Source: an uncultured Planctomycetales bacterium (GTDB lineage: Bacteria; Omnitrophota; Gorgyraeia; Zapsychrales; JANLHA01). From it: a DNA stretch of 49,172 bases. Below, one piece after another: positions 1 through 7,976 of the stretch (position 1 is its first letter; each line of letters opens with the position of its first letter). Both the position numbers and the translations under genes were made by a program. Under the pieces are notes generated by a model. The model searched no databases. It had not been told where the DNA came from and saw only the letters and a program-made list of their open reading frames with translations. Location of the stretch: positions 1-49,172 of the forward strand of contig CAYVEC010000013.1 of the NCBI GenBank assembly GCA_964450385.1. The letters run 5' to 3'.

Positions 1-233
1 GATGCCGTGCCGACCTCCGGGTGAAGACCAACCACCTGATCAGCCGATGGCCTCCCAAGGCCGGTCAGCCGATCAAGAAACGAACCTAAATAAATAAACA
101 CGGGGCGGGGCGACACAGCGAGAGGTTTGACCACGACCCGAATGAAACTCATTAGAACGAGATGGGCTGCAACCGCAGACACCAGCCCCAGCCATTCGCT
201 CATCACCCACAATTTAACGCGGCCCCTGCTCAT
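1..233 (-). CDS. 5' part of a membrane-anchored protein, possibly a TonB/TolA-like energy transducer; runs off the left edge and is absent from the ORF track
   Basis: ATG at 233-231 overlaps the exbD stop (TAATG). The frame is open to position 1 and reads MSRGRVKLWVMSEWLGLVSAVAAHLVLMSFIRVVVKPLAVSPRPVFIYLGSFL..., a basic N-terminus plus a hydrophobic helix containing His. It lies directly after exbB-exbD. Confidence 0.65.
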   Translation of the reverse strand, partial: MSRGRVKLWVMSEWLGLVSAVAAHLVLMSFIRVVVKPLAVSPRPVFIYLGSFLDRLTGLGRPSADQVVGLHPEVGTA

Positions 234-3898: not shown

Positions 3899-6694
3899 CT
3901 ATTTCGGAAACAAAACTTTCTTCAGATACTGACCCGTATACGAATCCGGATGACAGGCCAGGTCTTCGGGCCGACCCTCACAGACGATCCGGCCGCCCTG
4001 ATCCCCGCCTTCAGGTCCAAGGTCGATCACATAATCCGCGGTCTTGATCACCTCGAGATTATGCTCGACCACGAGCACCGTGTTCCCTTTATCGACAAGC
4101 TGCTGGAGGACCATCAACAGCCGATGGACATCCGCGAAATGAAGGCCCGTGGTCGGCTCATCCAGAATATAAAGCGTGCGGCCAGTCCCCTGTTTGCACA
4201 ATTCAGCCGCAAGCTTGACCCGCTGGGCCTCTCCCCCCGAAAGCGTTGTCGATGACTGGCCGAGTTTGATATAACCGAGGCCGACCTGACTCAGGGTCTC
4301 GAGGACCCGGTGGATCTTCGGAATATGCTCAAAGACCTCGAGGGCCTCATCCACGCTCAAGTCCAGGATATCCGCGATATTCTTCCCCTTAAAATAGATC
4401 TCGAGGGTCTGCTCATTAAATCGCCGCCCATGACAGACCTCGCACTCAACAAAGACATCCGGCAAAAAATGCATTTCGATCCGTTTGATCCCGTCACCGG
4501 TGCAGGCCTCGCATCGCCCGCCACGGACGTTAAAGCTGAAACGCCCAGGTTTGTATCCCCGGACCTTCGCCTCCGGGGTCTGGCTCAACAGGTCCCGGAT
4601 ATAACCAAAGACCCCAGTATAAGTCGCGGGATTTGACCGGGGCGTCCGGCCGATCGGCGACTGATCAACGACGATCACCTTGTCAATGTGCTCGATGCCC
4701 TTAAGGCTTTTGAGCCGAACCGAGCGGCCCGAGTCTTTTCGTAACGCGCTCGTGACTGCCGGGAACAGGGTATTCTCGATGAGTGACGACTTTCCGGACC
4801 CCGAAACCCCGGTCACACAGACAAACGCACCCAACGGGATGCTCACAGAAATATTCTTCAGATTGTTCTCCCGGGCGCCATGAAGAACGAGGCGCCGTGA
4901 TCCGCTGATATCCCTTCGGTGCGCCGGAACAGGGATCCCGATGTCACCGTTGAGATATTTTGCCGTGAGCGATGCGGGGCATGAGAGCAGACCCGCGACA
5001 TCCCCGGCATAGATGATCTCGCCCCCATGGATCCCGGCCGCCGGACCCAGGTCCACGATAAAATTCGCATGCCGGATCGCCTCCTCGTCGTGCTCAACCA
5101 CGATCAAGGTATTCCCAAGGTCGCGCAGTTGCTCAAGGGTTTCAAGCAAACGGACGTTGTCGCGCTGATGAAGCCCGATACTTGGCTCATCAAGCACATA
5201 GATCACCCCGACGAGACCCGACCCGACCTGGGTCGCGAGCCGGATCCGCTGGGCCTCTCCCCCCGATAGGGTCGCGCTCTTCCGATCAAGGGTCAAATAA
5301 TCGAGCCCGACATTAATGCAAAAATCGAGACGCCGCCGGATCTCGCGGATCATCGGATCCGCGATCAACCTCTCCTCACGCGAGAGGTCGAGGGCATCAA
5401 CAAATGCCCGAACTTTTGCGATCGATAAGGCAGTGACCTCGGCGATGTTCTTGCCGCCGACGTACACGGCGAGTGCCTCTTTTTTAAGCCGGCGTCCCCC
5501 GCACGACACGCAGGGATGAACAGACATGTATTGCGAAATCTCGTCCTTCAACCAATCGCTCTCCGTCTCTGTAAAAAGCCGCTGCATATAGCCGAGGACG
5601 CCTTCAAAACGCTTGCCCCAGACCTCATCGTTGGAGCCTCCCAAGATGATCGATCGAAATTTCTTCGGCAGGTCCTGGAACGCTACATCTGTCTCAACAT
5701 CATACAGGTCCGCGATCTCCCGGAGCACCGCTCGATAATACATGAGATAATTATGCCGCCCGCGCTGGTGGGGCGCGATCGCGTAGACCCACGGCCGTGA
5801 GGGGTCTGGGATCAGCCGCTCAGGATCGATCTCCAGTTTGGTCCCAAGGCCGCCGCATGCGGGACAGGCGCCGTAAGGCGAATTAAAGGAAAAAGTCCTT
5901 GGTTCGATCTCAGCCAGGCCTGTTCCGCACTGGACGCAGGCATACTGTTCACTAAAGGCCTGCTCCCTCCCCTCGTCATTAAAAAGAACCGTGACGAGCC
6001 CCTTGCCGAGCTCGAGAGCGGATTCGATCGAATCGGTGAGCCGTTTTTTCACCGTCGGCGAGACCTGGATCCGGTCAACGACCACATCGATATGATGCGC
6101 CTTATAGCGGTCGAGACGGACCTCCTCATCAGTCGAGATGATCTTCCCATCGACGCGCAGCCGAACGAAACCGGCCTTGGCCACCTGTTTCGTGATCTGA
6201 CGATACTCGCCCTTACGCCCACGGATGAGCGGGGACAAGACCGTGATCTTGGTGCCCTCGGGATGCGCGAGGAGTTGATCCACGATCTCCTGGGCCGATT
6301 GCCGTGTGATCGGCCGGCCGCACTCGACGCAGTGGGGACGCCCGACCCGGGCAAAGAGGAGGCGGAGGTAATCATAAATCTCGGTCTGTGTCGCCACGGT
6401 CGAACGGGGATTGCGGCTGGTCGTCTTCTGGTCAATCGCAATCGTCGGGGAAAGCCCGTCGATCGACTCGACATTCGGCTTCTGAAGCTGATCAAGGAAC
6501 TGCCGGGCATAGGCAGACAGACTGTCCATGTAACGGCGCTGACCCTCGGCATAGATCGTGTCAAACGCCAAGGAGGATTTCCCCGATCCGCTCAGCCCCG
6601 TGATCACCACCAATCGGTCTCGAGGGATCTCAAGGTCGAACCCCTTGAGGTTGTGCTCCCTCACGTTTCGGATCACGATCGTGTCATGGCCCAT
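3899..6694 (-). CDS. uvrA: Excinuclease ABC subunit A
   Basis: Two Walker A motifs ([18 protein letters not shown]), two LSGGEAQR signatures, CxxC zinc fingers. ATG 6694 follows AAAGGTGG; the track starts at GTG 6703. Confidence 0.98.
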
Positions 6695-6724
6695 CCCGTC
6701 CACCTTTCATCGATGTCTACGACA

Positions 6725-6765
6725 ATAAAATAGCCCCGTCATCTTTAAATGCGGGGCTATTTTAT
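6725..6765 (-). terminator. Intrinsic terminator-like hairpin after the Lys-rich gene
   Basis: Perfect 14-bp inverted repeat ATAAAATAGCCCCG (6725-6738) / CGGGGCTATTTTAT (6752-6765) with a 13-nt loop; the GC core is followed by a U-rich tract on either strand. Confidence 0.75.
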
Positions 6766-6783
6766 CACAAAAAAAAGACGGGC

Positions 6784-7119
6784 TTATCTCTTTTTTGCCG
6801 CCTTTTTCTTCCCAGCCTTCTTTGCAGTTTTTTTCTTCGCTGCCTTCTTGGCGGGTTTCTTCTTTGCTGCTTTCTTCTTTGCTGCTTTCTTCTTGGTTCC
6901 GCCTCTTACCATCTTCGCGCAAGAAATGTCCCCGTCTTTATCAAGAAAGTACAATACTCCTGACTCCTTCTTGACGCCGACCTTGGCCACCTTCTTCGGT
7001 TTGCCACCTTTCTTGGCGCCTCTAGCCATGACTGCGCAAGAGACATCACCGTCTTTGTCAATAAAGTAAAGCATTCCCTTTTCTTTCTTGACGCCGACCT
7101 TAGCCACTTTCTTTGCCAT
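6784..7119 (-). CDS. Small, very basic protein: two tandem 32-aa domains plus a histone-H1-like Lys/Ala tail; putative nucleoid-associated protein
   Basis: Strong RBS AAAGGGGGTGAG. 38 Lys in 111 aa. Residues 3-34 and 42-73 are 26/32 identical. Tail KKKAAKKKAAKKKPAKKAAKKK. Confidence 0.85.
   Translation of the reverse strand: MAKKVAKVGVKKEKGMLYFIDKDGDVSCAVMARGAKKGGKPKKVAKVGVKKESGVLYFLDKDGDISCAKMVRGGTKKKAAKKKAAKKKPAKKAAKKKTAKKAGKKKAAKKR
6901..7113 (-). repeat. Intragenic tandem duplication with 117-nt period
   Basis: Units at 7113-7018 and 6996-6901 encode KKVAKVGVKKEKGMLYFIDKDGDVSCAVMARG and KKVAKVGVKKESGVLYFLDKDGDISCAKMVRG; both share the DNA ttcttgacgccgacctt. Confidence 0.9.
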
Positions 7120-7169
7120 TGTCTCACCCCCTTTCCTCGTTCACCATATCGTAAAAAGGGCCTCCCCTT

Positions 7170-7976
7170 TTACGTACCAACCGTGACATCAGAACAAAAC
7201 CCCCGCAGCGTTTCGATCGCCGACAAGACCGCCAGATAACTCGTCTTGAGATTGTCCGGGCAGACCGCGTTCTCTGTCCGTGTCACGATCCGTCCGAAGG
7301 GACCGATCGCCTCGATCTCATGCGAATTCTGAACAAACGACGGTGATGTCAGGATCCTCACCTTTATTTTATCCTCGGCACGCGTCGCCAAGGCGAGGGT
7401 TGCAGCCACATTGATGTTCTGAGGAAAGGCGCGTACGGCCTCGGCGACGGGCCCTTCAAAGATCAGGGTCTCGCCGGTCACGCCGCCCAGATCGAGCCCG
7501 GACCGGCGGACATACTCATTCCCGTCGAAGCCCGAGACGGGCTTGCGGGTGGTAAGGGTGATCGAGGAAAAACCAACGGCCGCCGCGGCCCGAAGGCCGT
7601 CGATCCCGGCAATCGCCCCCGAGGGGATGAGCAGCCCGACACCCGCGGCGCGTGCCGCGTCAAGGAGATGGCGATGGGCCAGAAGCTGGCCGACGCTCAT
7701 GACGAGGACGCTCCGCCGAGCCGCAATGATCGTTTCGATCACGTCAGCGACCCGCGGGTCGTTAACGGCCTCAACAACAAGATCACTCGCTTTGATTAAG
7801 GTGTCGATTGTTCGGTGAACCAACTCCGGTCGGCCAAGATGGCGGGCAACGTCCGAGGCTCGCTCGGCATGATGATCATATATTCCGACGAGAAGGGCAG
7901 AGGCGACCGTCCCTGATTGAATTGCCTCTGCGATCCGAGATCCAATGGCCCCGCACCCTAAGATCCCAATATTCAT
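7170..7976 (-). CDS. nadX: L-aspartate dehydrogenase (NAD biosynthesis)
   Basis: MNIGILGCGAIG Rossmann start, PSGAIAGID, FPQNINVAA, NSHEI...KTSYLA. The extension to 8048 is AT-rich and contains the promoter. Confidence 0.92.
   Translation of the reverse strand: MNIGILGCGAIGSRIAEAIQSGTVASALLVGIYDHHAERASDVARHLGRPELVHRTIDTLIKASDLVVEAVNDPRVADVIETIIAARRSVLVMSVGQLLAHRHLLDAARAAGVGLLIPSGAIAGIDGLRAAAAVGFSSITLTTRKPVSGFDGNEYVRRSGLDLGGVTGETLIFEGPVAEAVRAFPQNINVAATLALATRAEDKIKVRILTSPSFVQNSHEIEAIGPFGRIVTRTENAVCPDNLKTSYLAVLSAIETLRGFCSDVTVGT

Follow-up and report, generated by a model that had tools for sequence, protein, structure and literature searches.

The 49,172-nucleotide stretch of DNA analysed here (the window) encodes a small, strongly basic protein that belongs to a large, unannotated family which, as its sequences indicate, is under very strong constraint. 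The find is better framed as this cross-domain family, present in bacteria and DPANN archaea, than as a single odd gene. We judge it an even call that the family binds nucleic acids without sequence specificity, most likely as DNA-architectural (nucleoid-associated) proteins. A preliminary description of this DNA had proposed a new chromatin domain. The domain has indeed not been described before, and of the readings considered a DNA-architectural role has the best support: DNA-type fusions, repeatedly gained tails, the cytoplasmic side on which the domain lies and strong expression signals all favour DNA binding, if indirectly. An RNA- or ribosome-binding protein would account equally well for the charge, the tails and the strong expression.

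The product starts with ATG, its stop codon occupies positions 6784-6786 and its sequence is MAKKVAKVGVKKEKGMLYFIDKDGDVSCAVMARGAKKGGKPKKVAKVGVKKESGVLYFLDKDGDISCAKMVRGGTKKKAAKKKAAKKKPAKKAAKKKTAKKAGKKKAAKKR. It contains 38 Lys, 3 Arg, 6 Asp and 2 Glu residues and carries a net charge of +33, in agreement with the composition reported earlier (111 residues, 38 Lys, 3 Arg, 8 acidic residues, net about +33); the two-unit domain alone has a net charge of +11. The protein is thus small (111 residues), basic (pI 10.5) and, having no signal peptide, cytoplasmic, as are nucleoid-associated proteins. Recurrence of the two-unit protein in over 2000 protein clusters shows this to be a genuine gene, far beyond what chance would produce. 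A Phe-rich 106-residue open reading frame on the opposite strand (6749-7069, +) was rejected as a gene because it arises from Lys codons read in antisense (AAG/AAA as CTT/TTT). For this reading-frame calling, the family gene was ranked over the overlapping antisense frame, which otherwise won in 33 cases among 85 sources, made up of the window and 84 loci. Nearly all open reading frames called in the window (1-49172) lie on the minus strand, and the annotated ones are housekeeping genes (dapA/dapB-type, folK, panC, uvrA, rpsI-rplM, acyl carrier protein and NifU); the same interval holds no tRNA gene and no Rfam match at gathering thresholds.

Table 1. Features of the basic-protein gene, its product and its immediate surroundings, in window coordinates.
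Feature	Residues	Position	Strand	Basis or remark
uvrA		3899..6703	(-)	directly downstream of the 111-residue gene
Intrinsic-terminator hairpin, 19 bp, U-rich 3' side		6724-6766	(-)	between the 111-residue gene and uvrA
CDS of the 111-residue basic protein		6784..7119	(-)	open reading frame list and translation; homologs at E 1e-31 to 1e-36
Polycationic Lys/Ala tail	74-111	6787..6900	(-)	38 residues after G73
Repeat unit 2	42-73	6901..6996	(-)	predicted strands 42-45, 55-59, 65-69
Inter-unit linker, Gly/Lys-rich (AKKGGKP)	35-41	6997..7017	(-)	
Repeat unit 1	3-34	7018..7113	(-)	self-comparison, AlphaFold2 strands, conserved columns
Predicted strands of unit 1	3-6, 16-20, 26-30			AlphaFold2, pLDDT >90; tight turn D21-K22-x-G24-D25
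Shine-Dalgarno site GGAAAGGGGGTGA		7124-7136	(-)	4 nt upstream of the ATG
Weaker hairpin over the stop codon of the upstream aspartate-dehydrogenase gene		7150..7174	(-)	RNA fold

The protein is built from two copies of one unit. Self-comparison aligns residues 3-34 with residues 42-73 at 26 identical positions out of 32, and the 39-residue offset is the sole signal, with 26 matches versus 1-7 at the other offsets scanned from 30 to 49; the two 32-residue units and their period, first noticed from the sequence alone, were thereby reproduced. At the DNA level, the units are identical at 73 of 96 positions. The linker between them varies in sequence and length across the family, where a slightly longer stretch averages ~12 residues with a net charge of ~+3.5. 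An AT-hook in the linker was rejected, as the window protein has GKP and GRP occurs in only 4 of 140 representatives of this variable segment.

A search with the N-terminal 78 residues matched 2131 clusters of proteins at the 90% identity level. Among the best 120, identity is 73-89% over ~75 residues and length is 75-102 residues (phmmer E 1e-31 to 1e-36); none has a Pfam domain, and all are called hypothetical protein; those among them with an organism name are mostly Candidatus Omnitrophota, plus one Endomicrobium. At 111 residues, the window protein is longer than all of the 120 closest relatives listed. A profile search of 1.84 billion representatives collected 1024 clusters at 50% identity (E <=0.001); of 150 representatives listed from these, 78 are at most 100 residues long and have a median pI of 10.2. 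As the representatives are mostly short, the typical member is a stand-alone two-unit protein with few terminal basic residues, and family members typically measure 75-85 residues. The ~39-residue period is found in 179 of 260 members.

The consensus is nearly identical in both units, EKVAKVGIK(R/K)EKGYLYFIDKDGDVSR(V/A)KMARG, and identity between the units inside one protein (0.51) is close to that between proteins (0.45-0.51), which indicates that both units are under the same constraint. The window protein fits the family motif K-[VI]-x-K-x-G-[VI]-K-[KR]-E-x-G-[YFW]-L-Y-[FY]-[IVL]-D-K-x-G-[DN]-[VI]-S within its ~32-residue units. Two alternative uses of conserved-looking residues were rejected: an EF-hand-like calcium loop at DKDGD, since its third position varies freely (Q/N/H/A/K/S) among homologs, and a metal or disulfide role for the two Cys residues, which are replaced by Arg/Lys in other phyla. 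A cluster look-up for names and cultured sources returned only hypothetical proteins from metagenomes, and full-text literature searches yielded neither a description of the family nor expression data. A subclass of ~172 residues (P0174, P0209, P0222 and P0260, the last at L250 2083-2613) carries a conserved C-terminal domain of ~85 residues (...VKYLVY...NLR.VN.VPKKY) with no Pfam or PDB match.

The spread of the family was assessed in three scans with one genome per GTDB species, which gave ~1000 species-level genome matches in total; every record is a MAG or SAG, and no cultured organism with a family member was found in these scans. Omnitrophota-type motifs occur in at least 558 genomes, a set that includes Omnitrophota (some labelled Planctomycetales), Endomicrobia/Elusimicrobiota, Myxococcota, Babeliaceae, a few Firmicutes-labelled MAGs and at least 9 Woesearchaeota MAGs with 62-77% identity, most of them 70-77%. 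A distinct subgroup is found in 303 genomes, nearly all Marinimicrobia/SAR406, and a high-GC subgroup in 179 further genomes, mainly of uncultured Myxococcota and Pseudobdellovibrionaceae, with more Woesearchaeota/Nanoarchaeota. The phyla covered are therefore Omnitrophota, Elusimicrobiota, Marinimicrobia (SAR406), uncultured Myxococcota and Bdellovibrionota, Dependentiae and Woesearchaeota/Nanoarchaeota. That the DPANN (Woesearchaeota/Nanoarchaeota) copies (L010, L017, L021, L035, L065, L071, L073, L080, L082, L212-L216 and others) are mostly 70-77% identical to the Omnitrophota protein suggests either transfer between archaea and bacteria or extreme constraint. A phage origin was discarded, as tblastn found no relative in 50,697 phage records and only 5 of 2.9 million IMG/VR contigs hold one; these five contigs (L245-L249, one of 430 kb), classed as viral (putative), encode relatives at 38-58% identity.

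The domain matches no known family. Searches of Pfam (E up to 10), NCBIfam, PHROGs and PADLOC returned nothing significant for the window protein, nor did PDB sequences, whether searched with the single sequence or a profile, and a single repeat unit gave nothing significant against the known-family databases. When 60 diverse members were compared one by one with Pfam at E <=1, only scattered sub-threshold matches appeared, among them DUF5050 in 9 members and Choline_bind_2/3 in 5 (E 0.037 or weaker). Neither the window protein nor any of the 60 members matched Bac_DNA_binding (PF00216) or CW_binding_1; the Linker_histone model gave no match at E up to 10, and the predicted domain is all-beta. 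For CspA, hhalign produced no alignment and there was no Pfam CSD match; for Sso7d it produced no profile alignment, and the SH3-like five-stranded barrel that marks Sul7d/Cren7 proteins was not recognized. Cold-shock domain and Sso7d identities were rejected for want of a profile alignment, and membership of the choline-binding repeats because the resemblance is faint and at the level of a motif. In all, no homology or fold similarity to known DNA-binding proteins was detected. These results uphold the earlier statement that the protein follows no known HU/IHF-type pattern (no HU/IHF, linker-histone or Sso7d match in profile searches) and the earlier suggestion that the domain is undescribed: it is new to Pfam, NCBIfam, PHROGs, PADLOC, PDB sequences and the literature searched. 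The preliminary description had further held that a match to a cell-wall-type repeat would speak against its view; none was significant, and the choline-binding resemblance stayed below threshold.

AlphaFold2 yielded one confident model out of five from a shallow alignment, and five agreeing models (pLDDT 83-90) from a diverse 60-sequence alignment of the domain, the best of which reached a pLDDT of 90.4 and a pTM of 0.73. The two-unit domain is thus confidently predicted to be compact and all-beta, with three strands per unit. In the predicted hairpin register, residue 20 pairs with 26, 18 with 28 and 16 with 30. We infer two faces from this register and the conservation pattern: the invariant, small or hydrophobic residues L17, F19, S27, A29 and M31 likely form a core between the units, and the aromatic residue at 16, the invariant Y18, I20, V26 and the variable, often basic positions 28 and 30 likely line an exposed face.

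The polycationic tail is of the KKKAA type, as first described; its length is 38 residues when counted from G73, and 36 by the boundary used previously. It is modeled as a low-confidence helix in the full-length AlphaFold2 prediction and is encoded by tandem DNA repeats with periods of 15 and 27 nt. Mapping of taxonomic spread and tail presence had been suggested at the outset, and alongside the ~1000 genomes reported above, polycationic tails of 25-73 residues were counted in 17 of the 85 species-level loci, in Omnitrophota, Woesearchaeota, Elusimicrobiota, Myxococcota and others. Their repeat motifs are lineage-specific (KKAV, KKTA, RRKPA, KKKAA), which indicates that tails were gained repeatedly and independently; they lengthen through tandem DNA repeats. 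Such repeated gains imply that extra affinity for polyanions is useful to the family protein. Most members end after 5-10 basic residues, so that the H1-like tail is a variable accessory and not the defining feature of the family.

Cellular abundance was judged by proxies, namely the Shine-Dalgarno sites and terminators of 85 loci, and these signals fit a strongly expressed, separately terminated gene. The ribosome-binding site of the window gene is strong, as claimed from the start, and lies in an unpaired region of the RNA fold of 7117-7190 (-), 74 nt (-18.5 kcal/mol, z -2.45). Across the 85 loci, the median energy of the anti-SD duplex is -12.0 kcal/mol for family genes versus -5.3 kcal/mol for other open reading frames, even though the latter were given their best candidate start, and 92% of family genes versus 10% of the others reach -9 kcal/mol or lower. 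The 70 nt downstream fold with a median of -25.4 kcal/mol for family genes versus -11.2 kcal/mol for other genes. In the window, the terminator hairpin folds at -29.4 kcal/mol (z -5.4), with none of 200 shuffles as stable; a simple terminator scan did not flag it. The view that the gene forms its own transcription unit holds at the 3' end, where the terminator is strong, and is unsupported at the 5' end, since the 50-bp gap upstream of the gene contains no sigma-70-like promoter. The weaker hairpin upstream may act in weak termination or mark a processing site.

Several fusion partners among the long relatives point to DNA. One fusion, P0261 (L251 3235-4347), carries an HNH domain with a PADLOC match (1e-20) to type IV methyl-directed restriction enzymes; its gene is flanked by a HipA/HTH (HipBA) pair and an AbiEi/AbiEii pair, a locus that looks like a defence island. 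A second HNH fusion is present; one fusion C-terminus matches the candidate defence protein PDC-S18 (2e-12), one fusion region matches a phage D5-like transcriptional regulator family (5.8e-9), and zinc ribbons are frequent among the partners. Other partners (OmpA, DoxX, HIT, GAF and HEAT) are uninformative on DNA. No RNA-specific partner (RNase, helicase, S1 or KH) was found among the 25 most frequent Pfam families of 49 long representatives. In membrane-anchored relatives, the hydrophobic segments and their flanking charges place the domain on the predicted cytoplasmic side.

We propose that one sheet face of each unit (Y18/Y57, I20, V26 and the basic positions 28 and 30) would contact DNA, a surface put forward from hairpin register and conservation, while the opposite face (L17, F19, S27, A29, M31) would pack the units against each other. 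The cationic linker and tail would neutralise backbone phosphates, and the two equivalent units would allow one molecule to touch either neighbouring sites of the same duplex or two separate duplexes. The 38-residue Lys/Ala tail would raise affinity and condensing power, as do the tails of histone H1, Hc1 and HupB.

Lys/Ala/Pro-rich C-terminal tails are known from histone H1, chlamydial Hc1/Hc2 and mycobacterial HupB. Residues 74-111 resemble them in being of the KKKAA type, of low complexity, predicted to be disordered or weakly helical, part of a small basic protein and variable in length through tandem repeats; unlike in H1, Hc1 and HU, the folded part of the window protein is unrelated (it has no linker-histone, Hc1 or HU domain) and the tail is optional in the family. 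Sul7d (Sso7d) and Cren7 are small basic beta-sheet chromatin proteins of Crenarchaeota, and the family as we propose it would resemble them in size (60-80 residues), basicity, all-beta structure and abundant-looking single genes, as well as in a triple-stranded sheet with exposed hydrophobic or aromatic residues flanked by Lys/Arg. HU/IHF (Bac_DNA_binding) is the near-universal bacterial nucleoid protein. Like the family described here, it is small, basic, usually encoded by a single gene and equipped with strong expression signals, and HU gains Lys/Ala tails in some lineages; however, there is no relation in sequence or fold, HU being an alpha/beta dimer with beta arms. IHF-like genes have been reported in at least some Omnitrophota (PMC11390915), which makes the family unlikely to be a simple replacement for HU/IHF; the two probably coexist.

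The most serious competitor to DNA binding is a small basic protein that binds rRNA or mRNA, with lineage-specific ribosomal proteins, RNA chaperones and factors of ribosome hibernation as examples, and we regard it as rather unlikely. Ribosomal proteins, too, are typically small and very highly conserved, with a pI above 10, a very strong Shine-Dalgarno site and an own terminator; the family gene of one Endomicrobium contig lies just upstream of rpmH-rnpA-yidD-yidC; and Lys-rich tails also occur on RNA-binding proteins, the tails here showing weak NCBIfam matches to those of valine-tRNA ligase and topoisomerase I. Yet besides that single rpmH adjacency, none of the ~165 loci examined has a ribosomal-protein operon context, the informative fusions join the domain to DNA enzymes and regulators and not to RNA enzymes, and the sole ribosome-derived Foldseek match is non-significant (E 0.33-0.87, TM <0.3). 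A tail that ranges from ~5 to 73 residues between close relatives would also be unusual for a protein fitted to the ribosome.

The hairpin motif G-[YFW]-L-Y-[FY]-x-D-x-x-G-[DN] raises another reading, in which the unit is a beta-hairpin module that self-assembles or binds a partner other than nucleic acid, possibly an anionic lipid, polyphosphate or another protein, and in which the charge has some other purpose; the module would be kin to, or convergent with, choline- and cell-wall-binding hairpins or beta-propeller blades. The motif shares with choline- and cell-wall-binding repeats (CW_binding_1, Choline_bind_2/3; LytA, PspA) a Gly, alternating aromatics, Asp, x, x, Gly arrangement. The sub-threshold Choline_bind_2/3 matches noted above are joined by faint matches to PspA/PspC (E 0.007-0.12), 3hia (E 0.67) and the LytA choline-binding domain (hhalign over 17 columns, probability 1.6%, P 0.03), and the propeller families appear as faintly through DUF5050 and the ELP1 propeller; several relatives are membrane-tethered. 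None of these matches is near significance or a curated cut-off. Choline repeats are ~20 residues long and form long arrays, whereas the family has two units at a 39-residue period, is strongly basic and cytoplasmic, even in its membrane forms, and is hosted by didermic bacteria and archaea without choline teichoic acids. As a hairpin module of this sort would also leave the extreme basicity, the repeated gain of polycationic tails and the nuclease and regulator fusions unexplained, we consider it improbable and retain it as a low-probability rival.

Genomic context lends no support to a part in DNA repair. Adjacency to uvrA, to which the preliminary description had drawn attention, is real: uvrA lies at +1 or +2 in 44 of the 85 species-level loci and no more than four genes away in 45. 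Aspartate dehydrogenase is the upstream neighbour in 52 loci, the 45 among them, and all of these are of the Omnitrophota type. The block order in Omnitrophota is aminotransferase, folK, panC, aspartate dehydrogenase, family gene, uvrA and TPR protein. The suggested tie to repair did not hold, as the adjacency is confined to Omnitrophota: in Elusimicrobiota a small HTH_17 gene lies upstream and uvrA is absent nearby, Marinimicrobia show envelope-gene neighbours, and Woesearchaeota and Myxococcota have yet other neighbours, again without uvrA. The adjacency therefore reflects phylum-level synteny and is no evidence for a repair role. That the protein is a dedicated nucleotide-excision-repair accessory or a specific regulator coupled to uvrA is very improbable, and a functional link was rejected, since the pair sits inside a longer housekeeping block, stands 80 bp (window) to ~240 bp (L001) apart with a strong terminator in between, and is missing in the four other lineages. 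Among the loci examined, no DNA-related neighbour is conserved across phyla; the lack of a common neighbour is usual for single-gene nucleoid proteins and also for scattered small ribosomal proteins.

Two further features of the neighbourhood were observed. An HTH_17 (excisionase-type) gene of 70-94 residues lies upstream on the same strand in nine loci, from Elusimicrobiota and one other MAG; it is adjacent in six (L004, L013, L030, L046, L049, L057) and one gene further away in L022, L072 and L079, forming with the family gene a conserved pair of small putative DNA binders. The replication origin appears to be close to the family gene in several lineages, a position that would increase the dosage of the gene: dnaA is three genes downstream in L046 and L051, L004 has rpmH-rnpA-yidD-yidC downstream, and in L177 the complete chromosome OZ245817.1 starts ~13 kb from the gene.

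Accounts of bacterial chromatin usually centre on HU/IHF, H-NS-like proteins, Fis and Dps, to which bacterial histones have recently been added. Beyond a DNA-architectural role as such, we tentatively advance a bolder and more doubtful idea, that the family is an unrecognised chromatin family with a new all-beta fold, spread partly by transfer between domains among uncultured bacterial phyla and DPANN, which would take a major part in coating or compacting the nucleoid of mostly small cells, with tail length tuning compaction. The family is as conserved as a ribosomal protein and is present in ~1000 species-level genomes, including those of the globally abundant marine SAR406 and of ultra-small Omnitrophota and DPANN, and it has no name, Pfam model or structural relative. 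With archaeal and bacterial copies 70-77% identical, the question of inter-domain transfer arises. Even if the protein proves to be RNA- or ribosome-related, its spread and constraint merit a structure and biochemistry, for which its small size and ease of production are an advantage. Should it bind DNA, the few known chromatin proteins would be joined by one with a new fold, which would also provide a handle on genome packing in lineages that have not yet been grown.
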